From: an uncultured Armatimonadia bacterium
GTDB lineage: Bacteria; Armatimonadota; Zipacnadia; Zipacnadales; CAYWBK01
Direction of reading: 5' to 3'
DNA length: 46,875 nt
NCBI GenBank assembly: GCA_964455745.1
Contig: CAYWBK010000002.1
Location: 1-46,875 of the forward strand
Made by a program: the position numbers and the translations under genes. Of the stretch, positions 20,735 to 40,051 are shown one piece after another; within the stretch, counting starts at the first letter, position 1; every line of letters begins with the position of its first letter. The notes under the pieces were generated by a model. That model ran no database searches and was not told the origin of the DNA. It saw nothing but the letters and a program-made list of their open reading frames with translations.

Positions 20735-21730
20735 TCAGCCCCAGACCCTTGCAGTGCTGCTGTCGTAGTAGTGTACCTGTACCGCGGGCCCACCGAACGC
20801 TTGTCGTTCGGCCGCGATCCGCTCGGCGGCCCCCCGGGTGGTTGCGTTACTTGGCGAGTCGGGATCCCCGTAGAGGCCAACGAACAGCCTATCGAGCCCT
20901 CTGGCCTCGGCGATGGCTGCACGGATATGGGCATCGGCGTCCGAGAGGGAGTGGCCGTAGATGACAAGCGTGCCGTCAGTGTTACGCAGAACCTGCATGC
21001 ACGTGCTCAGATACTCGCTGGCCGCGACCCTTGCGGCCTTCGCACCTGCACTGCCCTCGGAGACGAACAGGGGGACCTCGCCAGCAGCCAGCTCGGCTCG
21101 GATGCTTGTCAGCAGCGGATCCGTGCCGCATCGACGACGCTTCACGGTCCAATCGGCGCTCTCGTATAGGTGCAGAGCACCATGTAGATAGAACATCGTG
21201 GCAGTCGAGAGACCGGCTCGCGAAAAAGTCAACAGACCGGGGGCATCTCCCCAGTTCCCGAAGCTGTCCTCCCTCTGTGGGCCCACCTCGTTTAGCACCC
21301 AGTAGAGCAACAGGTCGTAGTTGGTCGTGAAGACTCTGCCGTAGGGCTCGACGAACGCAGCACAGATCTCCATCCGGTCATGGTCTATCGGGGCCCAAGT
21401 GTCCGGGTGTACCACCGTGAGTGCGGCGAGGAACGCCTCTCGTAGCTGGTCCACGCACTGCGAAACAAAGGGAAGCTGGACGCCGAAATGCTGGGCGAGC
21501 CACGCTGCTTCGTTGAACTCCTGCATCACGCCCTCAATGTTGGCCGTGCAGAGGTGGTCAAACACATCAACAAGCTGTTGGTCGATGGCACCGACCTGGG
21601 AGGCCACGTCTACCAGGCTGGTGTAACCGAACCGGGTATCGCAGGCGACGCTGAAACCGTTGCCCAGCAGGAGATGTGGGCAGGTGTTGCCTGCCTGCTG
21701 CATTACGCAGTCGTAGCTGATGACATCCAT
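20735..21730 (-). CDS. SIR2-superfamily-like protein (DUF4917-type) inserted between hsdS and hsdM
   Basis: ATG 21730 has GGGAGG upstream. Motifs are LLLGNGFS, FTTNYDLLLYW and YLHGALHL (the GxGxS / TTNYD / LHG pattern of SIR2-like proteins). Its stop lies 6 nt before the hsdM start. Confidence 0.5.
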   Translation of the reverse strand: MDVISYDCVMQQAGNTCPHLLLGNGFSVACDTRFGYTSLVDVASQVGAIDQQLVDVFDHLCTANIEGVMQEFNEAAWLAQHFGVQLPFVSQCVDQLREAFLAALTVVHPDTWAPIDHDRMEICAAFVEPYGRVFTTNYDLLLYWVLNEVGPQREDSFGNWGDAPGLLTFSRAGLSTATMFYLHGALHLYESADWTVKRRRCGTDPLLTSIRAELAAGEVPLFVSEGSAGAKAARVAASEYLSTCMQVLRNTDGTLVIYGHSLSDADAHIRAAIAEARGLDRLFVGLYGDPDSPSNATTRGAAERIAAERQAFGGPAVQVHYYDSSTARVWG

Positions 21731-21798
21731 TGCCTGGCCTCCCGACGGGATGCACTCTGGCACGTCAACCGGCTCTATCCCTACGGCTGCAACGTGGC

Positions 21799-23322: not shown

Positions 23323-26099
23323 GCCGCCAGCCTCTCATTCAGCTCTGCGAGGATGGGCTGCAGTCGCTCGCCGAACAGCTCATACACCCGGCCCAGTCCG
23401 CCCATCTGTGCGAAGGGAACGTCGTCGAAATCCTGCCGCTCGACGCGAAGGCTCGCCGCGATGTGGTCGCGAATCGCGTCCAGCCACTGCTGCTGCTCCG
23501 GGGTGAACCGGGCACCACCCGCCTCCTGCTCCATAAGCCACTCCTGGTAGCGGTGCTCGACTACCGCCGCCAGGGGCAACAGCGGCTCATCGGGGGTGAT
23601 GGCGTGACGTACCAAGGCGACTAGGTCGGCGATCTGCTTGCCTCCAGGCCCCTTCACCTTCCGGGGCTCTACAGCCGCATAGGCTGCCCAGAGCTGCTCC
23701 GGCTCAGACTGCAGGGGCGGCCGCCTGATGGCTGCGGCCAGGTCCTTGATGTGTCGGAAACGCAAGCCCTCCTGGTATGGACGGCTGTACAGCAGGCGGA
23801 TGCCCTCCAGCTCATCCTTGTTGTCCTCGATGAACTGGCGGAAGCTGGTGATGAGTCCTTTGGCCCTTTCGAGGGTCTTCGGGTCTCCTCCCGCGTAGAG
23901 GAGCTTGTCCTGCGTCACCTCGTCGATGGTCTGTTCCAGCAGTTGCCGGATCTCCAGAATGCGATCCCGTAGCTTCGGGTCTAGGAAGGGCCGTAGGGCC
24001 TGCACGACCATCGCCCTGTTGAGATGGCGGACCTCTTCGCCGGTGGGTTCCCGCCCGATATCCGCGAAGGCCTCAGCAGCCCGCCGCCACTGCTCGTCCG
24101 GGTCCACGCTACGGACGAGGTCAGCAGCCAGAGCCTTGGCATCCTTGCCTTCGGCAACCAGGGACACCTGTGCACGCTGCTCGTCATCCATTTGGCGATC
24201 CAGGCGAATCAGCCGTGAGGCCAGCGTCGATGCGAGACTCGACGTTGCCACCCCTCGTGCCGCCAACTGCAGCAGCTTCTCCAGCGGCACGGTGGGCTGC
24301 CGATCGAGAGGCTTGGTCTCGGTCTTGTCACGGTCACAGACGCCAACCGCGTCGACGATGACGAAGTGGGTCTTCGCCCTGGGGTGGTCCATGACGTGGG
24401 CCATCTCGTCCGCGTCGCAGATCCGTACACCTCGGCCCTTCATCTGCTCGAAGTAGCCCGCCGAGTTGACGTTCCGCATGAACAGTAGGCACTCCAGCGG
24501 CTTCACGTCGGTGCCGGTGGCGATCATGTCCACGGTAACGGCGATTCGTGGAAAGTAGGCGTTGCGGAACTCATTCAGGAGGACGTCCGGCTTCTTCCCA
24601 GTGGTCTTGTAGGTGATCTTCTGACAGAAGTCATTGCCTTTGCCGAACTCCTCTCGGAAGATGCGGGTGATGCCCTCGGCGTGCGAGTCGTCCTTGGCGA
24701 AGACAAGCGTCTTGGGCACCTCGCTCCTGCCCGGGAAGATGGCGGAGCCCGAGGGGCCAGCAGTGAAGAGACGATCTCGGAAGGTGCGGACGACGAGACG
24801 TATCTGGTCCCTGGCGACGACGTCGCGGTCGAGTTGGGCGGCCGTGTAGGTGAGATCGTCGTCCAGTTCTTCATATCGGACGGCACGAGTCCGGCGATCA
24901 CGCCTCGGCACCCGGAACCCCGGGGCCTTCCTCAGCGTCGCCCCCGTCTGGGTGACCTCAGTGTCGATGCGGTAGACGTCGAAGGTCACGTTGACGCCGT
25001 CGGCCACGGCGTCCGCGTGTCCGTATTCCATGACCAGGTTGTTGTCGAAGAACCCGATCGTCTGCTTGGTGGGGGTAGCGGTCAAGCCGATGACGAACGC
25101 GTCGAAGTAGTCCAGCACCTGTCGCCACTGGTTGTAGATGCTACGATGACACTCATCCACGACGATGACATCGAAGGTCTCGACCGGGATGTTCGGATTG
25201 TAGGTGACGGGCTCCGGCTCCCTGTGAATGGCGGCATCGGCCTCGAACCACGACGTCTCATCGTTCTCCTCCGCGTACTCCTCGTGCCCCTGCAGCATCG
25301 AGAACAGCCTCTGAACGGTGGAGATGCACACCCGGGCAGTCGGGTTCAGCACGTTCGACCGCAGGTGCTGGATGACGAACTCCTCGCCAAACGGCCTGCT
25401 GGCCTCCGGGCTGCGGTAGTCCGCGAACCGCTCACGAGCCTGCTTCCCGAGGTTGTTCCGATCTACAAGGAACAACACGCGGCGTGCACCAGCGTGCTTG
25501 ACGAGCCTGTAGACTGTGGCACATGCGACTCGAGTCTTCCCCGAGCCGGTCGCCATCTGGATCAGTGACTTCGGGCGGTTCTCGGCGAGGGACGCCTCCA
25601 GCTTGTGGACGGCCTCGACCTGTACCCGCCACAAGCCGTGAGCGTTGAGCTCGGGGAGCTCCCTCAGCCCCTGGCGGAATTGGCGGTCCAACTGGGCGAG
25701 ACGCCGCAGCTCTTCCGGACGATGGAATGCGAAGACCCGTCGGCTTCGGGGGTCGGGATCCAGGCGGTTGGTGAACTGCGTCTCCACACCCGTGCTCTCG
25801 TAGTGGAACGGCAGCGGGCGGGCATAGACGGGGATGTCCTCGGCGAGGCCATCGAGATACTTCAGCGACTGGACTTCGACTCCGGCGAGGGTGTGACCCT
25901 TCGACTTGGCCTCAACGGCCCCCAGGGCCTTGCCGTCGACGTAGAGCAGGTAGTCGGCGTGACCGGTGGCCAGCGGGAACTCGCGGACGGCGATGCCGGT
26001 CGCGGCCGAGATGTGCATCTGCTGGAGGTCCTGGACGACCCAGCCCGCCGCCGCGAGTTGCTCGTCAATCTCCAGCCTGGCTTCGTCTTCCGGCTTCAT
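23319..26099 (-). CDS. hsdR: Type I restriction enzyme R subunit (HsdR) with an EcoEI-type C-terminal domain
   Basis: N-terminus is EARLEIDEQLAAAGW. Helicase motifs are MATGSGKT and VVDECHRS. The C-terminal region resembles the EcoEI R C-terminal domain. Start at 26099 (AGGGGG upstream) is preferred; 26150 or 26255 are possible. Confidence 0.85.
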   Translation of the reverse strand: MKPEDEARLEIDEQLAAAGWVVQDLQQMHISAATGIAVREFPLATGHADYLLYVDGKALGAVEAKSKGHTLAGVEVQSLKYLDGLAEDIPVYARPLPFHYESTGVETQFTNRLDPDPRSRRVFAFHRPEELRRLAQLDRQFRQGLRELPELNAHGLWRVQVEAVHKLEASLAENRPKSLIQMATGSGKTRVACATVYRLVKHAGARRVLFLVDRNNLGKQARERFADYRSPEASRPFGEEFVIQHLRSNVLNPTARVCISTVQRLFSMLQGHEEYAEENDETSWFEADAAIHREPEPVTYNPNIPVETFDVIVVDECHRSIYNQWRQVLDYFDAFVIGLTATPTKQTIGFFDNNLVMEYGHADAVADGVNVTFDVYRIDTEVTQTGATLRKAPGFRVPRRDRRTRAVRYEELDDDLTYTAAQLDRDVVARDQIRLVVRTFRDRLFTAGPSGSAIFPGRSEVPKTLVFAKDDSHAEGITRIFREEFGKGNDFCQKITYKTTGKKPDVLLNEFRNAYFPRIAVTVDMIATGTDVKPLECLLFMRNVNSAGYFEQMKGRGVRICDADEMAHVMDHPRAKTHFVIVDAVGVCDRDKTETKPLDRQPTVPLEKLLQLAARGVATSSLASTLASRLIRLDRQMDDEQRAQVSLVAEGKDAKALAADLVRSVDPDEQWRRAAEAFADIGREPTGEEVRHLNRAMVVQALRPFLDPKLRDRILEIRQLLEQTIDEVTQDKLLYAGGDPKTLERAKGLITSFRQFIEDNKDELEGIRLLYSRPYQEGLRFRHIKDLAAAIRRPPLQSEPEQLWAAYAAVEPRKVKGPGGKQIADLVALVRHAITPDEPLLPLAAVVEHRYQEWLMEQEAGGARFTPEQQQWLDAIRDHIAASLRVERQDFDDVPFAQMGGLGRVYELFGERLQPILAELNERLAA

Positions 26100-26206
26100 G
26101 CGGCACCCCCTGGGGCACTCTCCAGTCTGTCGGTGCTGGGCTGACGACATGTTCGCTCTCTGCCCCGCCGTGTCCTCCGCTGGTTCACAGATCGGCAACA
26201 ATCGCA

Positions 26207-27469
26207 TCACGGCATCCTTCGGCGGGGAATCGGCGACACATCCGAGGCCGAGCATGGCCTTCTGGCCGAAGCCAACACCCTACATCGTCCCGAGAGCAGA
26301 TCCTCGATCGCCTCCCGTCTCAGCACCTCCAACGCAGCGATGCTCTTCCGACTGGTGCGTTCCACCTCGTCCACGGCCTCGAGGTCTCGAGCGATGCTGA
26401 TCTGCTCTTCGATCGTGGCCGGGATGGGGATCGGGAGATCGCCCAAGGCACCGTGGTCGATGGTGGTCATCCTGGACGCCTTCGCCGTCGACCGCAGGTG
26501 CCGCTCGGCCGCCTCCGTCTGGCAGTAGTGCCACAGGTAGTGTGGCGAGACCCTCTGGACGTCGGGGCAGAACCTGGCGAGGTGGCAGTCGAAGAGGATC
26601 GGCTGTTCGGTGGCCCTCACCAGGATCGAGCGACCGATGCCGTCGGGGATGATCGACGACCGCAGGAACAGGCAATCGCCGGATCCGACGCCGAACCTCT
26701 CGACCTCCGCATCGGTGGCCTCGACCCTCGCCAGGGCTCCGACGTCGAGACCATCCCACGAGAACACGTCCGGTGGCCGGATGATGGGAACCCCGCCCCG
26801 GTCGGCGTCCACCGCACTCGGCCTGAAGACCCCGTTGCGAAGGGGGATCGCAGCGAGGTCCTTCAGCCTGGCGGTGTGCCACACTTCGCCGACAGGGCGG
26901 AACGCTGCCCAGGCCATCGCTCGTGCGACCTCTCGTGATGCTACGATGGTTCGCTCCGTCTCCTCGATCGCCTCATCGATGCTCACCAGCAGGCCGCAGA
27001 TCCAGACCCGTTCGTCCTCGGGTGGTACGAAAATGGGACAGCGTCGCAGTTCGTGCCATGAGGTGCGGGGCATGTCGATGCCCCCGCTCTTCGCGATGGC
27101 GAACCCGATCACGTTCCGACTCTGGCACACGTAGAGCAGGAACTCCGGTTCCAGGTCGTCGTTCGGCACCAGCACCAGGATGTCGGCCGAGCAGCTCCCA
27201 TCGCGGTCGGCGAGGTTCACCTTCCCGAACCGTGGCCGCAGGCCGCTGAACAGGACGTCCCCCCTGTGGCACCTCGCCTTGGCCCCCGAGAGGGCTGGCG
27301 ACTCAGAGACCCGGGCGTACCTCCTGTCGGGCACCATGTCCTCGATCCCGACGTGAGCCCCCATCGCCGGAGCCCTGGTGGCGGGACGCGGGCGACACAG
27401 GTCTCCGAGGGTTCCCACCTTCCACCCCGGGGGCGTCTCACGGGCATGCTCAGGGAGTTGGATCGACAC
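26207..27469 (-). CDS. hsdS: Type I R-M specificity subunit (HsdS, copy 2)
   Basis: PPGWKVGTLGDL start, two TRD-like halves and the conserved ...EEQISIARDLEAVDE...LLSGRCRV end. It overlaps the hsdM2 stop by 20 nt. Confidence 0.75.
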   Translation of the reverse strand: MSIQLPEHARETPPGWKVGTLGDLCRPRPATRAPAMGAHVGIEDMVPDRRYARVSESPALSGAKARCHRGDVLFSGLRPRFGKVNLADRDGSCSADILVLVPNDDLEPEFLLYVCQSRNVIGFAIAKSGGIDMPRTSWHELRRCPIFVPPEDERVWICGLLVSIDEAIEETERTIVASREVARAMAWAAFRPVGEVWHTARLKDLAAIPLRNGVFRPSAVDADRGGVPIIRPPDVFSWDGLDVGALARVEATDAEVERFGVGSGDCLFLRSSIIPDGIGRSILVRATEQPILFDCHLARFCPDVQRVSPHYLWHYCQTEAAERHLRSTAKASRMTTIDHGALGDLPIPIPATIEEQISIARDLEAVDEVERTSRKSIAALEVLRREAIEDLLSGRCRVLASARRPCSASDVSPIPRRRMP

Positions 27470-28958
27470 GCGTCAGCTCCCCCATGCGAGATCGAAGCGT
27501 CGCCATCGCCCGCTCCCGGGCGGTCTCGGCTTCGTCGAGGGCCGCCATCGCGGCGGCCAGGTCCGCCGATTTCTTCGGATCGAAGGTGTCGACGTACCTC
27601 GGAACGCTCAGGATGAACCCCTCGGCGGCGATCTCGTCCATCGCCACCAGGCGACAGTAGCGATCCTCGTCCCGCCCCGACTCGAAGGCCTCCACGATCC
27701 GATCCACGTCCTCCGGCCGCAGGCGATTCCGTCTCCGCACCCGTTCGTAGCCACCGGAGGCGTCGATGAACAGCACTCTGCCCTGCCGTCGCTCCGGCTT
27801 GCGGCGGTTGAAGATGAGCAGGCACGCTGGGATGGAGTTGCCGTGGAAGATGTCCGCTGGCAGCCCGATCACCGCCTCGATGATGTCGTCCTCCAGGATG
27901 GCTCGTCTGATCCGGCCTTCCGATCTCCCCCGGTAGAGCACGCCCTGACTGCACACGACTCCCGCCCGTCCGGACTCGTTCATGCTGGCGATGATGTGCT
28001 GGAGGTAGGCGAAGTCGCCGTTCCCTTTCGGCGGCACGCCGTACGTGAACCGCCCGAAGGGATCATCGCTCAGCTCATCGCATCCCCAGAACTTGTCGGA
28101 GAAGGGGAAGTTGGCGATGACGACGTCGAAGGTCTGCAGTGTCCCGTCCCCTGTCAGGAACTGGGGATCGGTGAGCGTGGAGGCCCCGCCTCGGATCTCG
28201 GCCTCCAGGCCGTGCATCAGCATGTTCATCCTCGCGATTGCCCACGTGCTCCAGTTACGCTCCTGGCCGAACAGCCTCATGGCACGGGCTCCGTCGGACC
28301 CGCTTTGCCGCCGCAAGTGCTCGGCACCGTAGATGAGCATCCCGCCCGAGCCACAGGTGGGGTCGTAGATCGTTGCGTTGGGTGCGGGCTCGAGGATGCG
28401 GATCAGCACCTGGACGATCTCACGGGGGGTGTAGAACTCGCAGCCCCTGGCTCCCGAGTCGTCGGCGAACCTGCCGATGAGGTGCTCGTATCCCCTCCGC
28501 AGGACGTCCGCGTCGACGTTGGCGTCGGAGAGGTCGTGCTTGTCGAACTCGAGTACGAGAGCCCGTAGCACCTCGCCCCCGATGCGGGGCTTCTGGACGC
28601 CGTCGTCGTTCACGGTGGCGTTCCAACTCACGGAGCGGAGGACGGCGTCGAGTTGGGGGTTGGCGGAGCCGACGACGGACATCACATCGTCGAGTCGCCG
28701 CCCGAGCCGATCGGGAGGCGTGTCGGAGAGGTCCTGCCAGGAGCATCCCGGCGGGATCTCGATGCGGCGTGGGCCGTTCTGGCTGCGGGTGGCCCTCCGC
28801 CGTCCGGCCGTCTGGGCTTCGAACTGCGATTGGTCGGCGAGCCGCTTGTAGAACACCAGAGTCAAGATGTGGCTCCTGAACTCCTCCGAATCGATGGAGC
28901 CCCGAAGCACGTCGGCACAACTCCACAGGTGGGTCTCCAGTTGTTGCTGGGTCAGCAT
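27450..28958 (-). CDS. hsdM: Type I R-M methyltransferase subunit (HsdM, copy 2; different subfamily from copy 1)
   Basis: ATG 28958 has GAGGGGA upstream. N-terminus is LWSCADVLRGSIDSEEFRSHILTLVFYKRLAD. Motif I is DPTCGSGGML. Motif IV reads ANFPFS rather than NPPF. Confidence 0.8.
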   Translation of the reverse strand: MLTQQQLETHLWSCADVLRGSIDSEEFRSHILTLVFYKRLADQSQFEAQTAGRRRATRSQNGPRRIEIPPGCSWQDLSDTPPDRLGRRLDDVMSVVGSANPQLDAVLRSVSWNATVNDDGVQKPRIGGEVLRALVLEFDKHDLSDANVDADVLRRGYEHLIGRFADDSGARGCEFYTPREIVQVLIRILEPAPNATIYDPTCGSGGMLIYGAEHLRRQSGSDGARAMRLFGQERNWSTWAIARMNMLMHGLEAEIRGGASTLTDPQFLTGDGTLQTFDVVIANFPFSDKFWGCDELSDDPFGRFTYGVPPKGNGDFAYLQHIIASMNESGRAGVVCSQGVLYRGRSEGRIRRAILEDDIIEAVIGLPADIFHGNSIPACLLIFNRRKPERRQGRVLFIDASGGYERVRRRNRLRPEDVDRIVEAFESGRDEDRYCRLVAMDEIAAEGFILSVPRYVDTFDPKKSADLAAAMAALDEAETARERAMATLRSRMGELTRVDPTP

Positions 28959-29156
28959 CGGATGTTCCCCTCGATGATGCCCGTCGTGCGGTCGAGACGC
29001 CGCACGGCCAAGCGTGTTGTCATGTTCCCGTCCCGCCGTGGCGTCTCCTCCGACTTCGCAAGTCCCGCCGCAGGTCGCTCGGCAGCCCCTATCGGCGAGG
29101 AACTCCCCGCCTCGGCGGGGAAACGTCGTGCACCGACGCCAGCACCCGGAGTGCCC

Positions 29157-30872
29157 ATGCCCAGCCTCGTCCTCGACACCCTCAGAGTCCTCCTCCTCGA
29201 CCCTCGCTCCGACCCGTTGGATGTGGGGCTGGCCCTGCACGCCCTGACGCCGGAGGATCTGGCGGGGATAGGGTGCGGATCGCTCAAGGAGCTGTTGGGC
29301 CAAGTATTGCAGAAGAACGGGAAGCCCGAGTACTCCACCGTCATGCGATGGGTTCGAGCCGCCAGCGTGCTCTCCGGCTCCGACGATCCAAGGCGGGAGT
29401 GGGGCATCAGCAGGCTGGCGGAGGTAGCACGATGTTCTGACTCCGGGTCCCGCCGGAAGCTGCTACAGGCCAGGGGAAAGACCATCGGCAGGACGACGGT
29501 GCGGGAACTGCGTGAGGCGGTGGCCGTCCACGGAGCCGAGAGGCGTGACAGCCCCGACGCCGACGAGCCGCACTCCATCCTCGAGCGTGCCATCGAGATC
29601 GCCCTGCGGCACGAGCGGCCGGACGCAGCGGTCGAGATCGAGGTGCAGAGGAGCAAGGGCAAGCGGCCGACCTTCACGGTAGCCGCCAGGGGCGGTGCCA
29701 CCGACGCCGACATGGCCGAGGCACTGGGGACGGCCTCACGGGTCATGTCGGCCATCGCCACGTCCAAGGCCGCATGGCGGAAGGGAGGCCCGAAGCCCAT
29801 CCGGGTCCCCAAGCCCATGCCGGTCGACGACATCCTCGCCCTGCCGCCCAGCCAGCTCGAGGCCAGGTGGCTGGATCCCGACGCGGTGCAGATCACAAAG
29901 GAGGGCACGCCGATCCTGCACCTGCCGGTGGAGCGGTGTGAGCAGACCAACCACCGACTGGTGTGGCCGGAGGGCAACGTCAAGGTCCGGGACGTGTTCG
30001 GCATCATCGATTCCATCAGCCAGGGCTGCCTGCGGATCGCCACCGGTTGGCCTGGCACCCACGAGCCCTGTTTCACGCTCGATGGCAGCCGAACGACCGG
30101 GTGCTACGCCAACCATACCAAATGGGCGGGGATCAGCAGGAGCGAGCACGGTAGCTTCGACGTCATCAGCAACGGCCTCGTGAACCAGCTCATGAAGCTC
30201 CGGCTGCCACTCGATGGTAGCCCCGCCCTCGACCGCCAGACCCGGAGGATGTGGCGGGTGGACGCGGAATCCACCGACGGTGCCCTCTCGGTGTCGCTCG
30301 GAGTCTTCCAGGCTTGGGCGGAGGCGAACCCCGACCACCGCCTCATGACGATCTGCAGCCACCAGTTCAGTCCCTCGGACGAGATGCTCGCGTGGCTTTC
30401 CGCCCTGAGGAATGCCTGGACGGGGCACACGGTGGCGGCAGCCGGACTGTCCCCGGAGGAGGTGGACATGCGGTTCGCCTCCATCCGCCGCTTCCTGGAC
30501 TGGGGCGTCGCCTGTGCCGTGTGGATCGTCACCCACCCCACCTGGGACAACCAGAGCGTGCTCGATCGGGTCCTCGAACTGGTGCCGCCCGAGGCCATCA
30601 TCGAGGCCCCCTACCGTTTCCGAACCCTCGACCAGGCCCTGCCGGTGCTGCACGTCAACCGCCTCGGTGCCTGCAGCGATTATCGCCTCACCCGCTACGG
30701 CGTGGCCTGCCACGTCCGCAGGGACGTCGACCCCCAGACCGGCGAGATCGTCCCCACGCTCGTGGATGCCTCCGACAGCGAGGTGACGCACGCCGCACAC
30801 TCCAAGTGTGGCGGTGGCTGCGAGCTGCTGTGCGGGCTGAACGCCCTCGACCGTCGCAACGCCGCCCGCTGA
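29157..30872 (+). CDS. Protein with a HTH/ParB-like N-terminal region and a C-terminal Cys-rich domain of unknown function (paralogous to the middle of the giant MTase)
   Basis: ATG 29157 has GGAG upstream and the gene is divergent from hsdM2. The C-terminal ~330 aa align by eye with residues encoded at ~33.18-34.2 kb (LKLRLP.DG.P, DG.LS.SLG..QAW.E.NP, FSPSDEML.W, VW..T.P.WDN.S...R.LELVPP..IIEAP, L.L..LGAC.D). Confidence 0.55.
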   Translation: MPSLVLDTLRVLLLDPRSDPLDVGLALHALTPEDLAGIGCGSLKELLGQVLQKNGKPEYSTVMRWVRAASVLSGSDDPRREWGISRLAEVARCSDSGSRRKLLQARGKTIGRTTVRELREAVAVHGAERRDSPDADEPHSILERAIEIALRHERPDAAVEIEVQRSKGKRPTFTVAARGGATDADMAEALGTASRVMSAIATSKAAWRKGGPKPIRVPKPMPVDDILALPPSQLEARWLDPDAVQITKEGTPILHLPVERCEQTNHRLVWPEGNVKVRDVFGIIDSISQGCLRIATGWPGTHEPCFTLDGSRTTGCYANHTKWAGISRSEHGSFDVISNGLVNQLMKLRLPLDGSPALDRQTRRMWRVDAESTDGALSVSLGVFQAWAEANPDHRLMTICSHQFSPSDEMLAWLSALRNAWTGHTVAAAGLSPEEVDMRFASIRRFLDWGVACAVWIVTHPTWDNQSVLDRVLELVPPEAIIEAPYRFRTLDQALPVLHVNRLGACSDYRLTRYGVACHVRRDVDPQTGEIVPTLVDASDSEVTHAAHSKCGGGCELLCGLNALDRRNAAR

Positions 30873-30983: not shown

Positions 30984-31301
30984 TGCGGCCTCCTGAGCAT
31001 CCCGTTGACGTCGTCCCATCCATCCCGCCGACCGCCCCGATGGTGACGGTGCCACCGCTCCTCCCTGGCTCCGATGAGGCCCCATCACGCCTTCCCGCCG
31101 CCCTTCCGCCGACCTCGTGAACTCGTCCATCGTCAGTTCCCGTGCCGCGGTTCCCGACGCCTCCATGCCTCCTGGCTCCCGGTTCGCCGACGGGACTCCG
31201 TCCGTCCTGTCACCACTTCGGAGATGCCCAGCTACGGCCTTCCACGACCGTTCTCCTGTGGTTCGGACATGGCATTTTGTCCGCAGATGCCGTCCGGTTC
31301 C

Positions 31302-31597
31302 AACCTGCCTTGCCGGGCCGCCGACCCAGTGCCACCGGGGCTGGAGGTGGTTCCGATTAGCCCGAAGCCGAGGCCCGAATCCAGCCCCATCGCAGCACCG
31401 ATCATGCCATCGTATGGGCACATGTCGTTCGCCCATTCCGACCTGCCTTGCCGGGCCACCCTCCGAGTGCCACCAGCGTCGGAGGTGGTTCACATGAACC
31501 CAGAACCGACGACGCAGGCCACGCCAGTTCATGCGGCATGTGCAGAACGACACTTGCATCCCGACTTGCCTTGCCCCGCTCCCGCCCCGATGCCACA
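31302..31597 (+). promoter_or_regulatory. Island leader motif, copies 2-4 (three tandem units in front of the giant MTase gene)
   Basis: Copies are at 31302-31336, 31440-31474 and 31563-31597. Each is followed by GGAGGTG(G). Copies 3 and 4 are then followed by ATG (31494, 31617). Confidence 0.5.
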
Positions 31598-31616
31598 GGC
31601 GTCGGAGGTGATCCAA

Positions 31617-34600
31617 ATGGATCCCAAAGACAGCGAAGAGATGGGTCAGACGGACGTGCAGAGTCGTGACGAAGAGCAGGTCGTGCGGGCTTACGACCAG
31701 CCGGGAATCAGGCCGAGCACCTGGCGGGTCGTGCCCAACCTGATCGCTCGCCAGTACCGTGCCCTGTTGGAGTCGATCATAGTGTACGGGGTGCAGGTGC
31801 CCATCGTGATCGATGAGCACGGCACGATCATCGACGGCTATCATCGCTGGCGTGCCGCCGTGTGGGCAAAGCGAAGGGACATCCCGTTCACGATCGTCCC
31901 CGGCCTCTCCGAGGCGGGAAAGCGAGAGCTGGCACGCCGTCTCAACCTCGCCCGCAGGCACCCCGGCCCCAGCCAGAGGCGGCAGATCGTAGAGGAGCAG
32001 CTCCGGGAGCGTCCGGATCTGAGCAGCCGAGCAGTGGGACGCCTGTTGGGCGTCGATCACAAGACGGCGTCCAAGGCCCGCAAGCGGCTCGAGGCCGCAG
32101 GCGAGATCCCGGTCGTCACTACCGTCACCGACGAGCACGGGAAGCAGAAGCAGCCAGTCCAGAAGAGCCGGGCCATCCACTGCCGCAGCATCGCCGAAGC
32201 CCAGAGGGCGATCCGGGATGCGACGGAGTTCGGGGATGACCCCATCCCCACTTCCGCCAACGACGCCCGATCGATGGCCAAGGCGGCGGCGAAGCACAAG
32301 AAGGATCGTCTGGATGACGAGGATCTGGCTCGGTACCTCGCCGAGCGGTACTCGGGCGAACTCGAGATCGACAGCGTCCGACGAGAGGACATCCGGAAGC
32401 TCGACCTGCCGGAGGGCAGCGTCGACCTCATCTATACCGACCCTCAGTACCACGAGGATCATCTCGAAACGTACGAAGCCCTCGCCGAGCTGGCGAGCCG
32501 GGTGCTGAAGCCGGGCTGCCTGCTCTTCGTCTACTGCGGCAAGCAGTTTCTGCCGGATGTCATCCAGCGACTCGGCAGCCATCTCGACTACGTGTGGACG
32601 ATGGCCGACGTGTTCGAGACCGGCGACCACGTGGTCGACAGCGTCCGCGTCAAGGAGAAATACCGGACGATCCTCGTCTACAAGCGGCCCGGCGAGACCC
32701 CCAAGCGGGTTCTCGTCCCCGACGCCGTCCACAGCCCCAAGCAGAAGGACGACCACGACTGGCAGAACTCCTGCGAGGCGGCTCGCACGTACATCGAGGC
32801 ATACACCCGTCCCGGCGACGTGGTACTGGATCCCTTCGTGGGCGGCGGCACGGTCCCGGCCGTATGCGTCGAACTCAACCGACACTTCCTGGCCTTCGAC
32901 GCCGATCCGAACGCCGTGAAGCGGACGCTGCGACGACTCGAGAGGATGAGCGGCGACGCGGGCGACGATGTGGGCGACCCAGAGGGCGACGAGGATGACC
33001 CCGACGACGGCGGCCCCGCGGGGACCCCTCCGCCCGACTACGGCCTCCCCGAGTTCGACAGCCCGATCTCGCCGTTCGCCTGGGGTGGCGAGACACCGGC
33101 CGAGGTCGTCGCCGCACGGAACGCCCTGGTCTGCCCCAGCGACGGGGGAACCGGCGACTACGAGCACTTAACGATGGACGAGATCGACGCCCTGCCCGCC
33201 GGACCGCTCACGGTCTCGTGGCGGTCGCCCCAGCTCGTCGACTTCCACAAGGCCGACCGATGGGTGGCGAGCATCCCCGTGAAGCGGGCGAACCTGAAGA
33301 CCTTCTTCCACGCTGAGGGCAGCATCAAGTCCGAGGGGGCGGTGCCCGTCCTCAACGGCCTCTCGAACGGCTGCGGGCGGCGGCTCACGGGCCACGCCAA
33401 CTGCGACCAGCGGTGCTTTCAGGGGCCCGGCAAGTGCTCAGGGTGTTACGCCGATGTCAATCAGTACAGCATCCGCGAGGAAAACCGAGCCAAGGGCTGG
33501 GGCATCGTCCACAACGGCTTCATCACCACCCCGGACGACACGGTCAACGACTGCCTCAAGCTGCGGCTCCCCGGCGATGGGAAGCCCGGCCACTTGACCG
33601 ACCTGATGGCGAACTCCGGCCCCTTCGACCCGCCGATGGTCAGGACCGACTGCGTCTCCAGCGACGGCTCGCTGAGCTTGTCGCTGGGACTGATCCAGGC
33701 GTGGTCGGAGCAGAACCCCAGCGTGCCGTTCTACACGATCAGTTCGGACTACTTCTCGCCCAGCGACGAGATGCTGCGGTGGGCGGCATCGATCCCGACG
33801 CTCTGGGTGGGACATACCCTCAGCCCGTGGTTCTCTGAGATCGAAAACGAGACCCGCCTGGCGGCCATCCGCCGACACCTGGACTTCGGCGTGCCGACCG
33901 TGGTGTGGATCACGACCTCCCCCGACTGGGACAACTGGTCGATCGCCGAGCGGGCACTGGAACTCGTCCCTCCGACCCACATCATCGAGGCCCCACTGCA
34001 GACTTCCAAGCTCAGCAAGCACCTGCCCCTGCTGCACCTGAATCCGCTCGGAGCCTGCGGCGACATGCGGTACGACGGCGATGGACGCCTGGCGACCTTC
34101 GTCGAATGCAAGGGCAAGCAGGTCGCTCACGTGGTGGGCGAGGATGGGCTGGAGCGAGCCAAGGGTCACGTCAGCCCCCGCTGCCGGGGCTGCCGGGTCA
34201 AGTGCGGCTACTACGCCGTCCGTGGGATGGTGGAGGCTGCTGCAGCCGAAGCACCCGTGTGGGTCCCACAGGCGGCCGACGCTGGCCTGATGGGGGGTGC
34301 CGCCCCCCTCGTACAGCCCCTCCCAGGGGCCCATACGCTCGAGATCCGGGACCAGGTCGTCGTGACCGGTGACTGCCTGCGGGTGCTCTCCGAGTATCCC
34401 GACGGCTCGATCTCCGTTGTCGTGACGTCGCCTCCTTACAACCTGAACAAGGACTACGGTTCGGTTGGGGACGATCGTCCGATGGCCGAGTACCTGGACT
34501 GGATGGAAGAGGTATCGGCCGAACTCGCACGAGTCCTTTCGCCGGACGGCTCTCTCTTTCTCAACCTGGGGATCGTCCCCTCCCGGCCGTGGCTCGCGGA

Positions 34601-36263
34601 CGACGTGGTGGCCCGCTTCCGGGACCACTTCGTCCGCCAGAACACCTTCGCCTGGGTGCACTCGCTGCACGACGGTGAGCGGACGAGGGGGCAGTTCAGC
34701 CCGATCAGCTCCCCCCGGTTCGTCAACCGCACCTGGGACCCGGTCTACCACCTGACGAAGACCGGCCGGGTCGAACTCGATCGCCTCGCCGTCGGCGTGC
34801 CCCAGGAGGATCCCCGCAACGCCGAGAGGTTCGAGGGGTCGCAGGACATCCACTGCGGCGGCGACACCTGGTTCATCCCCTACGAGAGGAAAACCAGCCG
34901 TGCCAAGGACAAGGGCAGGCACCCGTGCCTCTTCCCCGTGGAACTCGTCCGCCGGTGCCTCCTGCTGCACGGGGTCGACCGAATCCGCCTGGCTCTCGAC
35001 CCCTTCCTGGGTTCGGGCACGACACTCGTGGCCGCCAGGCGGCTCGGCATCCCCGCCGTCGGGATCGAGCTCGATCCCGACTTCGCAGAGAAGGCGAGAG
35101 AGCGAGTGGCGGAGACCGAGGTCGAACGCACTCCGGCCGAGCCCACGATCCCGGCCAAGCGTGCGGTCGAGCGGGGCGACGGGACTCGACGATCCGTTCG
35201 CAGGAGCGGCACTCAGGGCGACTCCGCCGCCAACGAGACCGATGCCCTCGGGCAGCGGACCCACGTGTGGGTCGACACCACCCAGGTCACTCCCCTCCCA
35301 TCTCGCACGCTGGTCGATCTCTTCTGCGGGGCAGGTGGCATCGGCGAAGGGTTCGGGCAGGCCGGGTTCCGTTCGATCTTCGCGGTGGAGATGGACGAGG
35401 ACGCTGCCGCGACCTACCAGACCAACTTCCCCCATTGTGACCTCGTGCTGGCCGACATCAGGGACCTCACCGACGACGAGATACTGTGCCGCATCGGCGG
35501 CGTGAAGGTGGACGTCGTCTCGGCTGGCTGGCCGTGCCAGGGGATGTCCTCTGCGGGCAAGCGAAATCCGGCCGACCCACGCAACCTGCTATACCGCGAG
35601 GCCGTCCGGGTAGTTCGGCTCCTCCGCCCCCACGTGGTCGTGATGGAGAACGTGCCCGAGCTGCTGGACGGGCGGAACCGAGGCCTATTGGAGGGCCTTC
35701 TGTCGTCGTTGGGCGATGCGGGCTACCCCGACGCCAGCGTGATGCTCCTCGATGCCGCCGACTACGGCGTCCCCCAGCGACGCCTGCGTGCCATCACCAT
35801 CGCCAACCGCGACGGCCTACCGAACCCATATCCGCTGCCCCTCCTGACGCCCGATCACCACGTGACGGCTCGGGAGGCCATCGACGATCTGCTGCTGCGG
35901 CCGAACGACCCGTGGACGAACCACACGCCCGCTCGACACAACGCCGAGACGAAGGCGGATCTCGCGAGCATCCGTGCGGGGGGAAGCGGCTACGAGCGTT
36001 CTCGCCAGGCACGCCGCCCGCTCGACCCGGATGCTCCGGCACCCACGGCGACGTACTGCCACGGGAACGGGTTCGTCCACTACGCCGAGAACCGCATCAT
36101 CACGCCTTTGGAGTACGCACGCCTCCAGGGCTTCCCAGATGAGCACGTGTTCGAGGGCGGCAAGGGCTCCGTCGGCGGTCAGATCTGCAACGCCGTGCCG
36201 CCGCCCTTGGCGAGGTGCATCGCACTGGCGGTGCAGAGCCTGCTGGACGAAGTGGGCGAGTGA
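31617..36263 (+). CDS. Giant fusion protein: ParB-like domain + N6/N4-MTase-like module + Cys-rich DUF + N6/N4 MTase + C5-cytosine MTase
   Basis: ParB: VPIVIDEHGTIIDGYHRWRAA. Module 1: IYTDPQYHED ... VLDPFVGGGT. DUF: NGCGRRLTGHANCDQRCFQGPGKCSGCYAD... Module 2: VVTSPPYNL ... LDPFLGSGTT. C5: DLFCGAGGIG, GWPCQGMS, ENVPELL, QRRLR, CNAVPPPLA. ATG 31617 has GGAGGTG 6 nt upstream; an in-frame ATG 31494 also has an SD. Confidence 0.75.
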   Translation: MDPKDSEEMGQTDVQSRDEEQVVRAYDQPGIRPSTWRVVPNLIARQYRALLESIIVYGVQVPIVIDEHGTIIDGYHRWRAAVWAKRRDIPFTIVPGLSEAGKRELARRLNLARRHPGPSQRRQIVEEQLRERPDLSSRAVGRLLGVDHKTASKARKRLEAAGEIPVVTTVTDEHGKQKQPVQKSRAIHCRSIAEAQRAIRDATEFGDDPIPTSANDARSMAKAAAKHKKDRLDDEDLARYLAERYSGELEIDSVRREDIRKLDLPEGSVDLIYTDPQYHEDHLETYEALAELASRVLKPGCLLFVYCGKQFLPDVIQRLGSHLDYVWTMADVFETGDHVVDSVRVKEKYRTILVYKRPGETPKRVLVPDAVHSPKQKDDHDWQNSCEAARTYIEAYTRPGDVVLDPFVGGGTVPAVCVELNRHFLAFDADPNAVKRTLRRLERMSGDAGDDVGDPEGDEDDPDDGGPAGTPPPDYGLPEFDSPISPFAWGGETPAEVVAARNALVCPSDGGTGDYEHLTMDEIDALPAGPLTVSWRSPQLVDFHKADRWVASIPVKRANLKTFFHAEGSIKSEGAVPVLNGLSNGCGRRLTGHANCDQRCFQGPGKCSGCYADVNQYSIREENRAKGWGIVHNGFITTPDDTVNDCLKLRLPGDGKPGHLTDLMANSGPFDPPMVRTDCVSSDGSLSLSLGLIQAWSEQNPSVPFYTISSDYFSPSDEMLRWAASIPTLWVGHTLSPWFSEIENETRLAAIRRHLDFGVPTVVWITTSPDWDNWSIAERALELVPPTHIIEAPLQTSKLSKHLPLLHLNPLGACGDMRYDGDGRLATFVECKGKQVAHVVGEDGLERAKGHVSPRCRGCRVKCGYYAVRGMVEAAAAEAPVWVPQAADAGLMGGAAPLVQPLPGAHTLEIRDQVVVTGDCLRVLSEYPDGSISVVVTSPPYNLNKDYGSVGDDRPMAEYLDWMEEVSAELARVLSPDGSLFLNLGIVPSRPWLADDVVARFRDHFVRQNTFAWVHSLHDGERTRGQFSPISSPRFVNRTWDPVYHLTKTGRVELDRLAVGVPQEDPRNAERFEGSQDIHCGGDTWFIPYERKTSRAKDKGRHPCLFPVELVRRCLLLHGVDRIRLALDPFLGSGTTLVAARRLGIPAVGIELDPDFAEKARERVAETEVERTPAEPTIPAKRAVERGDGTRRSVRRSGTQGDSAANETDALGQRTHVWVDTTQVTPLPSRTLVDLFCGAGGIGEGFGQAGFRSIFAVEMDEDAAATYQTNFPHCDLVLADIRDLTDDEILCRIGGVKVDVVSAGWPCQGMSSAGKRNPADPRNLLYREAVRVVRLLRPHVVVMENVPELLDGRNRGLLEGLLSSLGDAGYPDASVMLLDAADYGVPQRRLRAITIANRDGLPNPYPLPLLTPDHHVTAREAIDDLLLRPNDPWTNHTPARHNAETKADLASIRAGGSGYERSRQARRPLDPDAPAPTATYCHGNGFVHYAENRIITPLEYARLQGFPDEHVFEGGKGSVGGQICNAVPPPLARCIALAVQSLLDEVGE

Positions 36264-36414: not shown

Positions 36415-36449
36415 ACGGAGCGTAGCCAACCCAACGTGAGGTGATCGAG

Positions 36450-37967
36450 ATGACATTCGAGCCCAGCACCGACGCGACGAACGCTGCGTTGCCAACCGCC
36501 GAACCGGACGACACCGACGGTGCAGCGGTGCCCGACGAGGTCGAAGACGAGGGCGGCGTCGCCAACCTCGGCGGAGATGACATGAGCCTGGCGGCCGCAT
36601 TCATGCGGTCGCTGGACGACGCCGGTCGCCTGGTCCGCTACTCCACCAAGGATCTGCTGTGGGAGTACGACCACGACAGGGGAGTTTGGCGACGCTTCAC
36701 CGAGAGCGACATGAGGGCGTTCAACGCCGCCCTGTACGAGTTCGTGCGGGATCGCCTGCCAGCGAACCACCGCAACGACCGCAGCACGTCACGCTACCGA
36801 TCCGTCCGTCGAGTCCTGTTCGACACGCTCGGGGACTACCACGTCGCCCCGGATGAGTTCGACGTCGACTCCAACCTGATCGCCTTCCGCAATGGCGTCT
36901 ACGACCTCGAGCGGGACGTCCTGCTGCCCCACGATCCGTCCCACATGCTGACCAGCACCCGCGACTACGACCACGACCCGAAGGCCACCTGCCCGAGGTT
37001 TGTGCGGTTCCTGGAGGAGGTGCTGGTTCGTCGTCTGGACCCCACCGACGAGACCAGCCCGCTGGTGCCCGATCGTCAGCTCTGGCTACTCGTGCAGGAG
37101 ATGATGGGCTACTCGTTCGCCACCCACTGTCGGGCAGAGAAGGTCTTCTTCATGTATGGCGATGGACGCAACGGCAAGTCCGCCCTGATTCGGGTCCTCT
37201 GCCAAGTCGTGGGAGAGCACAACGTCTGCGACTTCGACGTGCGTGAGATCGGCAACTCCCAGATGAACGACCGGCTCATCGGCAAGCTGGTCGCCGTCCA
37301 GACCGAGCTGGATGCCGGGACGACGATCCCCGACGCACGCCTGAAGGCGATGGCGTCCGGCGAGGGCATGACGGCGAAGGTGGTCTACGAGAAAGTGGTC
37401 TCCTTCCACCCCTTCGCGACCCTCATCATGGCGGGCAACAACCTGCCCACGACCCGCGATCGATCCAAGGGCTTCTGGGCTCGCACGGTCGTGATCCCCT
37501 TCCTGGCCACGTTCGAGGGCGACGCCGCCGATGCCAACCTGCAGGATCGATTCCTTCCCGAACTCGCCGGTGTCTCCAACTTCGCCGCCGAGGGCTACCG
37601 CCGCCTGCGGGACAACGGCTGGCGGTTCACCGAGGCCGCCACCAGCGTTCAGGCGACGCTGCGGTACCGAGAGGAGACCGACAGCGTCCTCTCGTGGTTC
37701 GACGACTCCCTGCGGGCGGCGACGGCCACCATCAAGGTCCAGACGGCGGACCTGTTCGACAGCTACTCGGAGTACTGCCGACGCTTCCGGTTCGCCGCCG
37801 ACAACCTCACCCGCTTCTCCAAGAGAATCAGGCAGATCGTGGACGCCCGTGAGGGGCAGGCGTGGTCGACTGCCGCCGATGGCGGCACCCCCTTCTCGAT
37901 GGCCTTCCACCGAGCCGCCAGCTCCAGGGGCTACGTCGGCACGTTCCAGCTCGTCTCGGAGCCGTAG
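36450..37967 (+). CDS. Phage/plasmid primase, P4 family C-terminal / D5-like SF3 helicase protein
   Basis: GAGGTG lies 6 nt upstream of ATG 36450. D5_N-like NLIAFRNGVYDL, Walker A GDGRNGKS, then ...LIMAGNNLP and the WR..V.PF pattern. Confidence 0.7.
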   Translation: MTFEPSTDATNAALPTAEPDDTDGAAVPDEVEDEGGVANLGGDDMSLAAAFMRSLDDAGRLVRYSTKDLLWEYDHDRGVWRRFTESDMRAFNAALYEFVRDRLPANHRNDRSTSRYRSVRRVLFDTLGDYHVAPDEFDVDSNLIAFRNGVYDLERDVLLPHDPSHMLTSTRDYDHDPKATCPRFVRFLEEVLVRRLDPTDETSPLVPDRQLWLLVQEMMGYSFATHCRAEKVFFMYGDGRNGKSALIRVLCQVVGEHNVCDFDVREIGNSQMNDRLIGKLVAVQTELDAGTTIPDARLKAMASGEGMTAKVVYEKVVSFHPFATLIMAGNNLPTTRDRSKGFWARTVVIPFLATFEGDAADANLQDRFLPELAGVSNFAAEGYRRLRDNGWRFTEAATSVQATLRYREETDSVLSWFDDSLRAATATIKVQTADLFDSYSEYCRRFRFAADNLTRFSKRIRQIVDAREGQAWSTAADGGTPFSMAFHRAASSRGYVGTFQLVSEP

Positions 37968-38261: not shown

Positions 38262-38706
38262 CATCGAGGTCCCCGATGGCCGTCATCTCGACCATCGTGG
38301 CCTTCCGACACGAAGAGCGGTTCTGACCTGCCCTGCCGCGAGAGCTCGGAGTGCCACCATGCCCCGAGACGACATGAGCAGGAACCACACCATGTCGCAG
38401 ACGCACATCGTCGGCCGCAGTGGCGGCCGGGAGGAGGAATGTGCAACGACGACCGACACGGCCGTGCGAACGATCAAGCTCGAGGGAGTCGATGGCCGCC
38501 ATCTCGACCGTCCTGCCCTCCCGACACGAATGGCCATCCCGACCTGCCTTGCCCCGAGAAGTCGGAGTGCCACCATGCCCCGAGACGACATGAGGCCGAA
38601 CGGGACCATGTCGCAGACGCACATCATCGGCCGCATCTGCGGCCATCAGGAGGAATGCTCAATGGCAACCGACACGGCCGTGCAGACGATCAACATCGAC
38701 GGAATC
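38262..38706 (+). repeat. 216-nt tandem direct repeat (~2 copies) containing leader-motif copies 7 and 8
   Basis: Units start at 38275 and 38491 (GATGGCCGYCATCTCGACC...). Motif copies are at 38325-38375 and 38541-38591. Each unit ends with AGGAGGAATG and the first ~14 codons of the downstream gene. Confidence 0.85.
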
Positions 38707-39015
38707 GAGTACGAGCTCAGGCCACCCACAGACGACAGCTACGCCGACCTCGATGCTTGGCTGGAGCACGACCTCGTGGTGGAGTACGCCGACGAAGATC
38801 AGCCGGACGACGCCGAGAGCATCCGCACGTATGGGATCGAGTGCGTCCCCGGCATCGTCGACGCCGAGGGCCGGACGGTCGGGTTCGTGTGCCCTGATTG
38901 TCAAGTGCCCGTGCTGCTCCACCACGCCGACGTCTACCAGGACCGTTACCGGGGATGCCCCCAGTTCGGCTGCGACGTGGTCGTCTACTGCGGCGATGTG
39001 CTGCCGAAGGGGTGA
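38662..39015 (+). CDS. Small acidic protein with a C-terminal Cys cluster (zinc-ribbon-like)
   Basis: AGGAGG lies 9 nt upstream of ATG 38662. Sequence runs MATDTAVQTINIDGIEYEL...FVCPDCQ...GCPQFGCDVVVYCG. The frame stays open upstream, so ATGs at 38359 and 38575 are alternative starts. Confidence 0.5.
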   Translation: MATDTAVQTINIDGIEYELRPPTDDSYADLDAWLEHDLVVEYADEDQPDDAESIRTYGIECVPGIVDAEGRTVGFVCPDCQVPVLLHHADVYQDRYRGCPQFGCDVVVYCGDVLPKG

Positions 39016-39277: not shown

Positions 39278-40051
39278 ATGCCAAAGAGCCAGAATCGGGG
39301 CGAGATGATGTCCCGGCCTGGAAGTGACCGCCGCAACGCAGGCTACATCCACTTCCGCAGCATCGCCGATGACTGCGTCCAGCAACTGCTGTCCGAGGGC
39401 GAGCACGAATCGGTGGTGGGTCGGCTGGCCACCGTCCACTGGTTGGATGATGAACGGGCACCGGTGGTCTGCCCGAGCCTGGGTATTCTCCGCAGGATGT
39501 ACTGCGAGGTGTGCACCACCCAGCCGGACGGTGGTGCTCGCACATACACGGGGGATGTGCCCGGCGTCAGGTACGACGGTGACATACCCCAGCGATTCCC
39601 AGACTGGCGTGTCCAGGCGTTGATCGACCTCGGCTACGACGCCGAGTGCATCGCCAGCGGAACGGCTGATCGCTACGTGATCGTGGCCGTCGAGCCACAC
39701 GGGTCTGACGTGATCGAGCAGCTCGGAGAGAGCATTGCGGTGGTCAGGATACATGCCGGAGGTGGGATCAGCGTCGTAACACCGGGGGATGCCGTAGAGC
39801 TGTATGGACACAGGGAAGACGAGGAGCCTTGGGGCGATCAGGAGTTCTGGGAGGCCGTGACCGGTCCCCGGTCGGCCACGGCTCCCGATGGCATCGAAGG
39901 GCTCATCGTCCGACTCGAGGACCGAGGCTGGACCGACGTGGAGGTGCTGGACTGGCACAACGCGGTGACCGGGCAGGACCACCTCTGGGTGTTCGCTCTG
40001 CCTCCCCTCAAGGACGACGACACCGATGAGCCCGAGCTGGATCAGGACTAG
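39278..40051 (+). CDS. Acidic hypothetical protein
   Basis: GAGGAG lies 9 nt upstream of ATG 39278. The translation is protein-like throughout. No recognisable domain. Confidence 0.45.
   Translation: MPKSQNRGEMMSRPGSDRRNAGYIHFRSIADDCVQQLLSEGEHESVVGRLATVHWLDDERAPVVCPSLGILRRMYCEVCTTQPDGGARTYTGDVPGVRYDGDIPQRFPDWRVQALIDLGYDAECIASGTADRYVIVAVEPHGSDVIEQLGESIAVVRIHAGGGISVVTPGDAVELYGHREDEEPWGDQEFWEAVTGPRSATAPDGIEGLIVRLEDRGWTDVEVLDWHNAVTGQDHLWVFALPPLKDDDTDEPELDQD

Follow-up and report, generated by a model that had tools for sequence, protein, structure and literature searches.

Natural fusions of amino-methylases with C5-cytosine methylases include Dmt of phage P1 and the type IIS enzymes M.Alw26I and M.Esp3I, and the ParB-like proteins DndB and DpdB are partners of DNA-modifying enzymes. 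Fusions of a ParB domain with a methylase are a known, little-studied route by which mobile elements pre-empt restriction. Prophages are enriched in fusions of a ParB fold with an N6_N4 methylase (PMC12704722), and similar methylases carried by plasmids have a role in establishment (PMC7736820). On duplex DNA, enzymes that modify DNA are activated by ParB homologues (PMC13229309). Analysis of a 46,875-nucleotide (nt) stretch of DNA from an uncultured Armatimonadia bacterium (contig CAYWBK010000002.1; this whole stretch is called the window) revealed a gene encoding a chain of 1548 amino acids (aa), referred to as the giant protein. In this chain, a ParB/Srx-like domain with a helix-turn-helix (HTH), two beta-class amino-methylase modules, a cysteine-rich orphan domain, designated X, and a C5-cytosine methylase are joined (Table 1). 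Multi-methylase fusions and ParB–methylase fusions are already known; for the five-module chain, a search of 5.8 billion protein clusters gave full-length coverage by the giant protein itself only, which makes the architecture unique in that search. We consider it fairly probable that the giant protein is a self-protective multi-methylase of a mobile element, that it represents a fused gene cassette, and that its domain X is a metal or iron-sulfur (Fe-S) enzyme working on DNA together with the methylases.

The open reading frame (ORF) had been described in a first-pass annotation as a single polypeptide, and all motifs quoted there were found in their places in the translation. The same plus-strand frame stays open back to an ATG at position 31074. 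The start at 31617 is preferred because the ribosome-binding (Shine-Dalgarno) sequence GGAGGTG lies ahead of this ATG and because the 181 additional upstream codons have no family match, consist of repeated leader units, and show poor codon bias; the longer N terminus from ATG 31074 was therefore rejected. The G+C content of third codon positions (GC3) in the frame of the ORF was 0.75 to 0.95 in every 120-nt segment across all three linkers. An identical protein is encoded on a 50.5-kb JGI contig, on a 62-kb JGI contig, where its gene call adds 9 aa, and on a Logan contig of 9 kb, which matches the window at 100% DNA identity. Of the three domain junctions, two recur in independent single proteins: the ParB–module 1–X junction is also present in P0002 and P0036, and the X–beta-methylase junction is also present in proteins of 976 aa (locus L005) and 972 aa (locus L010). 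Comparison with the 73%-identical orthologue at locus L003 gave ratios of nonsynonymous to synonymous substitution rates (dN/dS) of 0.27 for ParB-HTH, 0.23 for module 1, 0.28 for X, and 0.30 for the C5 module. All four values indicate purifying selection.

On this evidence, namely, the uninterrupted frame, the coding-type GC3, the presence of an identical sequence in contigs from different assemblers, the independently recurring junctions, and the low dN/dS in all compared modules, we conclude that the giant ORF is one real chain, encoded by a single gene that belongs to an integrated mobile element. The same data make it very improbable that the ORF is an assembly or sequencing artifact, or that it is a pseudo-fusion in decay that does not function as a single chain. 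That explanation would accommodate the finding that the module 2–C5 junction occurred in this organism only in the search of 5.8 billion clusters, and two substitutions described below (DPQY in module 1 and Glu to Val in X) are possible signs of decay; moreover, the assemblies may all stem from the same or related samples.

Table 1. Features of the window and their positions
Feature	Positions	Strand	Remarks
Giant multidomain ORF, stop codon included	31617-36263	+	1548 aa, no internal stop
ParB/Srx-like domain and HTH	31617-32336	+	DGYHRWRAA at aa 73; HTH at aa ~120-168; basic, isoelectric point (pI) 9.6
Beta-class amino-methylase module 1	32337-32951	+	DPQY at aa 275 (32439-32450); DPFVGGG at aa 405 (32829-32849)
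Three linkers of the giant ORF	32952-33158, 34257-34331, 35127-35300	+	
Acidic low-complexity linker (first of the three)	32952-33158	+	pI 4.1; in-frame GC3 0.88-0.93; predicted local distance difference test (pLDDT) <50 at linker start
Orphan Cys-rich domain X	33159-34256	+	aa ~515-880, ~365 residues; seven conserved cysteines
Beta-class amino-methylase module 2	34332-35126	+	SPPY at aa 938 (34428-34439); DPFLGSG at aa 1128 (34998-35018)
C5-cytosine methylase	35301-36260	+	FCGAGG at aa 1236, PCQ at aa 1306, ENV at aa 1344, QRR at aa 1387, NAVPP at aa 1525
Upstream X gene	29157-30872	+	571 aa; basic helical N-extension (~225 aa, pI 9.4) and second X domain
Three direct copies of ~74-nt leader unit	31298-31371, 31436-31509, 31559-31632	+	CCGACCTGCCTTGCC-N15-TGCCAC, GGAGGTG, start codon
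D5_N/DUF5906 primase-helicase	36441-37967	+	Pfam; conserved downstream partner of the cassette
Large serine recombinase at element edge	40561-42246	+	Pfam Resolvase, Recombinase, Zn_ribbon_recom; 3' end overlaps tRNA-Asn
tRNA-Asn, last gene of rRNA operon	42205-42279	-	
rRNA operon: partial 16S, tRNA-Ile, tRNA-Ala, 23S, 5S, tRNA-Asn	42208-46875	-	
Type I restriction-modification (R-M) locus	19241-29303	-	HsdM 19241-20728, 27450-29303; HsdS 21799-23322, 26207-27469; HsdR 23319-26255
DUF4917/SIR2-like gene within type I R-M locus	20735-21922	-	PADLOC PDC-S21, 1.3e-81
Two Mrr_cat genes (methylation-dependent restriction type)	6316-7347, 14009-15004	-	First with weak response-regulator receiver match
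WD40 beta-propeller with C-terminal TIR_2	15983-18037	-	
AAA_13 ATPase	145-2640	-	PADLOC candidate PDC-S06 (6e-66)
Large ORFs with no or marginal family match	3265-6282, 2715-3674, 39278-40051	+, -, +	

Profile searches supported the order of domains proposed in the first-pass annotation, and each of the three methylase modules exceeded its curated Pfam threshold. Module 1 and module 2 matched N6_N4_Mtase (PF01555) with 2e-17 (64.3 bits) and 1.2e-36 (127.2 bits), respectively, at a cutoff of 26.7 bits, and the C5 module matched DNA_methylase (PF00145) with 2.6e-57 (195 bits; cutoff, 22 bits) and TIGR00675 with 8.8e-44. At the N terminus, the Pfam match to ParB_N (PF02195; E value, 0.004; 17.5 bits) remained under the gathering cutoff of 26.3 bits, and the HTH matches were likewise subthreshold (E values, 0.01 to 0.02). 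ParB-like families of the PHROG collection match this N terminus, the best being phrog_620 at 3.5e-11, and a PF02195 match is on record for the orthologue P0002. Both beta-class modules show the motif order IV, recognition region, I, with an FxGxG-type motif I, and both match phrog_67 and phrog_498. Their nearest relatives among Protein Data Bank (PDB) sequences are DpnA, CcrM, N4C methylases, M.RsrI, and M.MboIIA, with 4e-19 for module 2. A recent tandem duplication as the origin of the two modules was rejected because their local identity is only ~24%. The C5 module, for which M.HaeIII and M.HhaI are the nearest PDB relatives, is complete for motifs I (FxGxG), IV (PC), VI (ENV), VIII (QxRxR), and X (GNxVP). 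The three methylase modules are thus well founded; that they represent three chemistries, as also proposed earlier, is plausible from their motifs, the SPPY sequence of module 2 being more typical of N4-cytosine enzymes.

The consensus of motif IV in amino-methylases is (D/N/S)-P-P-(Y/F/W) (PMC7544214). Module 2 (SPPY) satisfies this consensus, and module 1 (DPQY) does not. Comparison of the codons revealed ACC GAC CCT CAG TAC in the giant gene and ACC GAT CCC CCG TAC, encoding DPPY, in the L003 orthologue; the more distant orthologue P0036 likewise has DPPY. Because both orthologues (P0002 and P0036) carry DPPY and the single nucleotide exchange CCG>CAG suffices, DPQY is read as a recent, lineage-specific change in an otherwise conserved module and not as an old family variant. 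The departure from the consensus makes reduced activity of module 1 likely in this copy.

Searching for homologs of X gave no match in Pfam and PHROGs at E values of ≤1, in NCBIfam at ≤0.1, in PADLOC, or in a profile search of PDB sequences at ≤10, in agreement with the initial description of the Cys-rich domain as uncharacterized. When 18 X members were compared with Pfam at E values of ≤10, single noise matches only were obtained, and a profile search of 5.8 billion proteins recovered nothing beyond the X family itself. An exhaustive HMMER scan of 1.84 billion proteins defined this family as 59 cluster representatives. At the sensitivity used, X was not found in GTDB representative genomes, IMG/VR, or PLSDB plasmids or, with three different queries, in GenBank phages, and a metagenome scan added one truncated locus. 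On these searches, X is a rare, previously undescribed orphan family. It is not a one-off insert in the middle of a methylase chain, which the first-pass annotation might suggest: it belongs to a small family, has a second copy encoded upstream of the giant gene, and is recurrently linked to ParB and methylases. Most long family members carry X fused to ParB or to an N-extension, and free-standing X occurs on phage-like contigs. X itself is acidic to neutral (pI 6.1), yet every X of a mobile element is joined to a basic partner, which is ParB-HTH in some cases and the N-extension in others.

Conservation was determined for 40 members with 23 to 75% identity to the domain of the giant protein. 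Seven cysteines, C586, C600, C610, C814, C856, C859, and C863, are conserved in at least 92% of these members, and the position of C596 is Cys in 66%. Polar residues at predicted strand ends, K571, R588, N633, R676, Q694, N700, S710, S736, R747, R753, and T767, are nearly invariant.

AlphaFold produced confident models for X of the giant protein (pLDDT, 86.6; predicted template modeling score, 0.87) and for the upstream paralogue (pLDDT, 91.7). The models begin with an N-terminal beta-meander and a strand that leads into a Cys-rich loop; about six beta-alpha units come next, and a hairpin region and a helix with CxxCxxxC complete the order. The predicted fold of X is a partial beta/alpha barrel. 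Three of the conserved cysteines are placed on the loop that follows the first strand, and a set of four flanks the C-terminal hairpin and helix. The top Foldseek probabilities against PDB structures, for X of the giant protein and upstream X, respectively, were 1.00 and 0.99 for SkfB, 0.96 and 0.97 for SuiB, and 0.92 and 0.72 for NifB. These radical S-adenosylmethionine (SAM) enzymes of the SPASM/twitch type were the only consistent, nonsignificant neighbors of both models. The BFVD list was led by phage radical-SAM and Gp37/Gp68-like proteins, and DUF5131 (Gp37/Gp68) is listed as a subgroup within the radical-SAM superfamily (PMC9477430). An amidohydrolase or TIM-barrel hydrolase, to which the top Foldseek E value pointed (6uvz), is not favored, as His and Asp metal ligands are not conserved and the seven cysteines are.

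From the conserved cysteines and the model, we take X to be, probably, an enzyme that binds a metal or Fe-S cluster and works on DNA, and possibly a very divergent relative of the radical-SAM enzymes. Several results weigh against this interpretation. No Foldseek match reached an E value of ≤0.001 (E values were 0.015 or higher, with template modeling scores of 0.17 to 0.29), the canonical CxxxCxxC is not present, the spacing being C586-x13-C600-x9-C610, Pfam Radical_SAM (PF04055) and DUF5131 (PF07505) did not match X of the giant protein at E values of ≤1, and an hhalign comparison of X with Escherichia coli MoaA was empty (probability, 0.2%). In addition, a Glu present in 85% of family members is Val, and two conserved Asn residues are Thr and Ser, in the giant protein, P0002, and P0015. 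The Radical_SAM profile matched 1 of the 18 members compared with Pfam, at 0.11, and recognizable SAM-binding motifs were absent from X. X was not filed as a member of the radical-SAM superfamily because a significant E value, CxxxCxxC, a match to a hidden Markov model (HMM), and SAM-binding motifs are all lacking. A more specific proposal, that X is an unrecognized Fe-S radical-type enzyme which makes a DNA modification beyond methylation, e.g., by further processing of 5-methylcytosine, together with the linked methylases, and which ParB-HTH or the basic N-extension would deliver to the DNA, is regarded as unlikely. Because of the replaced Glu and Asn residues, the copy of X in the giant protein may be altered and may have a different function.

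The same replacements, together with the absence of a catalytic-family match in Pfam, PHROG, and PDB sequences, would also fit a nonenzymatic role, in which X is a Zn- or Fe-S-stabilized scaffold that dimerizes (X of the giant protein with upstream X) or recognizes DNA and organizes the methylase modules, in the manner of eroded partners in beta-class dimers. X paralogues are encoded side by side both in the window and in L005, and beta-class methylases act as dimers, some of them with noncatalytic partners (PMC7544214). However, the nearly invariant polar residues at the predicted strand ends resemble an active site, lone X proteins occur on phage-like contigs with no methylase nearby, and L010 has a single X in the 10 kb upstream and 2 kb downstream that were examined. 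We therefore regard a pure scaffold as unlikely and retain the metal or Fe-S enzyme as the preferred reading of X.

Analysis of the surroundings of X in other mobile elements revealed that it is recurrently fused or adjacent to ParB and to beta-class and C5 methylases. Locus L005 encodes an N-extension–X protein (P0079), the 976-aa ParB–X–beta-methylase (with SPPY), a C5 methylase of 347 aa, an 82-aa ORF, a D5 primase-helicase, and a homolog of the 135-aa gene found downstream of the giant gene in the window. Locus L010 comprises the 972-aa ParB–X–methylase, C5, and the start of a D5 primase. The upstream X protein of the window, which had no Pfam, PADLOC, or PHROG match, shares 53% identity with P0079 along its entire length and ~36% with X of the giant protein, and it retains the family Glu as well as each of the seven cysteines typical of the family. 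The D5 primase-helicase of the window is 59% identical to its L005 equivalent, and the L010 homolog begins at the same place. Because other elements encode the same parts in two to three genes, the giant gene is best read as a fusion of a conserved mobile-element cassette, the arrangement in related elements being N-extension–X, ParB-HTH–X–beta-methylase, C5, and D5 primase-helicase as separate genes. Compared with this cassette, the giant protein has C5 fused on and an extra beta-class module, module 1, between ParB-HTH and X. Module 1 is also present at L009, where ParB–module 1–X stands without C5 beside integrases, and at L003, where the orthologue of the giant protein ends with a stop after X and has no module 2, a C5 gene follows in another frame, and a different beta-methylase comes after C5. 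For positions 2638 to 4606 of L003, the stored gene calls give a 419-aa minus-strand ORF, and tblastn placed a C5 methylase on the opposite, plus strand. Its frame runs on into the first part of a beta-class methylase, with the SPPY region, and the remainder of this methylase is in another frame. The region is either a C5–beta-methylase fusion with a frameshift or the result of a sequencing error.

In the mechanism considered fairly probable above, the basic ParB-HTH module would tether or load the enzyme on the DNA of the element, as suggested by the prophage enrichment of ParB–methylase fusions and by the activation of DNA-modifying enzymes by ParB homologues. The C5 module, with its catalytic motifs intact, and module 2, with SPPY, would methylate this DNA at many sites, and the methylation would shield it from restriction during replication or on entry into a new host. 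Module 1 would have been a normal DPPY enzyme until the recent Pro>Gln exchange and would probably be weakened in this copy, though it may still add to the methylation. X would carry metal or Fe-S clusters, one or two in number, on which a further DNA-directed activity would depend. The first-pass annotation had also invoked self-protection on a mobile element. The setting fits this reading, with the D5 primase-helicase directly downstream and the serine recombinase at tRNA-Asn, and the proposed methylation would resemble that by the establishment methylases of plasmids (PMC7736820). Two findings pull the other way. The element contains two Mrr-type nucleases and a type I R-M system, so that the locus could be read as defense and not as counterdefense, and a stand-alone phage X (L004) lies without any methylase within 13 kb. 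L004 and a second phage-type stand-alone X, L007, have almost no annotatable neighbor genes.

A defensive interpretation would be that the N-extension–X protein attacks unmodified DNA and the giant protein marks self DNA, as in a new R-M-like pair. The locus does sit in a defense island, with type I R-M, DUF4917/PDC-S21, two Mrr, TIR-WD40, and AAA_13/PDC-S06 genes and a tyrosine integrase to the left of the cassette, and the presence of one X protein with methylases and one without resembles R and M subunits that share a module. Furthermore, the conserved Glu is lost in the methylase-linked X of the lineage of the giant protein and kept in the stand-alone copy. However, both X copies of L005 keep the Glu, and X has no similarity to nuclease families in Pfam, PADLOC, or Foldseek. 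L010 has the ParB–X–methylase and C5 with no N-extension–X gene upstream, and no such gene was found in L009 or L003 either, though both contigs start less than 150 nt upstream of the gene. The cassette also travels with a primase-helicase and recombinases and not with host genes. This pairing is accordingly judged quite unlikely, and self-protection of the element is retained as the preferred reading. The direct neighbors of the giant gene are the X protein and the primase, the type I R-M system has its own HsdM, and Pfam and PADLOC scans of the window identified no recognizable cognate type II endonuclease adjoining the giant gene, as had been noted earlier. The location of Mrr genes near a triple methylase raises the question of cargo-gene compatibility.

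The giant gene is preceded by three leader units, the third of which holds its ribosome-binding site and ATG 31617. The bipartite motif of these units, TGCCYTGCC-N15-TGCCAC(C), has eight sites in the window, all on the plus strand, at 7464, 31311, 31449, ~31572, 36287, 38334, 38550, and 40376. The sites are always intergenic and upstream of plus-strand genes, namely, those for the tyrosine integrase, the giant protein (three sites), the D5 primase, the 135-aa gene (two sites), and the serine recombinase. The 18-nt core of the motif was observed 5 times compared to 0.11 expected, and a relaxed pattern was observed 9 times compared to 0.63 expected. None of the related loci L003, L005, L009, and L010 showed the motif, which is probably an element-specific promoter or operator. 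A 219-bp unit, which includes the motif and the first codons (MSQTHI...) of the 135-aa gene (38608 to 39015), occurs twice with 82% identity within 38274 to 38708; leader units are thus tandemly duplicated at both 31298 to 31632 and 38274 to 38708.

The tRNA-Asn gene is the probable integration site of the element. Its end is not repeated elsewhere in the window, so that no such repeat marks the far end of the element. In the region of the rRNA operon, the G+C content drops from ~0.65 to 0.55 to 0.57. Among the large ORFs with no or marginal family match, that of 1005 aa (3265 to 6282) has a weak DEAD match, and the 257-aa gene (39278 to 40051) sits between the primase and the recombinase.

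The giant protein is the most elaborate ParB–methylase fusion found among the 5.8 billion protein clusters. It serves as a "Rosetta stone" in that it physically joins X to ParB, two amino-methylases, and C5, and gene adjacency elsewhere shows the same link; it is therefore a concrete lead to a possible new DNA-directed enzyme. If X is an Fe-S radical-type enzyme that modifies DNA beyond methylation, these mobile elements and phages would have a new hypermodified base; if X is only a scaffold, the protein is an interesting but ordinary architectural variant. The giant protein might also provide a compact reagent that places N6-methyladenine or N4-methylcytosine plus 5-methylcytosine marks from one chain.

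Comparison with the known systems shows both shared and distinct features. Like SkfB, SuiB, and NifB, X is predicted to carry three cysteines behind its first strand and, toward the C terminus, CxxCxxxC beside a hairpin and helix; unlike these enzymes and the DUF5131 subgroup, it has no CxxxCxxC, Pfam or HMM match, or significant E value. As in phage P1 Dmt, M.Alw26I, and M.Esp3I, more than one methylation chemistry is indicated per chain by the motifs; in contrast to these enzymes, which have two modules and are not known to carry ParB or an extra domain, the giant protein combines three methylase modules with ParB-HTH and X. Unlike the 5mYOX activator ParB, DndB, and DpdB, it has methylases and X as partners and not a dioxygenase, a sulfur-insertion system, or a transglycosylase. 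It does share with the 5mYOX activator ParB (PMC13229309), and with DndB and DpdB, a ParB-like module that is coupled, by fusion or adjacency, to a post-replicative DNA-modifying enzyme. Of GenBank phage proteins, none exceeded 39% similarity to the giant protein, in partial stretches. The phage, prophage, and plasmid proteins in which a ParB fold is fused to an N6/N4 methylase (types PHROG 498 and 67, PMC12704722; M.EcoGIX and M.BceJIII, PMC7736820) resemble it in the ParB/Srx-like N terminus followed by a beta-class methylase, in the location on a mobile element, and in the absence of a partner endonuclease; the giant protein differs from them in having two unrelated beta-class modules, a C5 module, and the orphan domain X in the middle of the chain.

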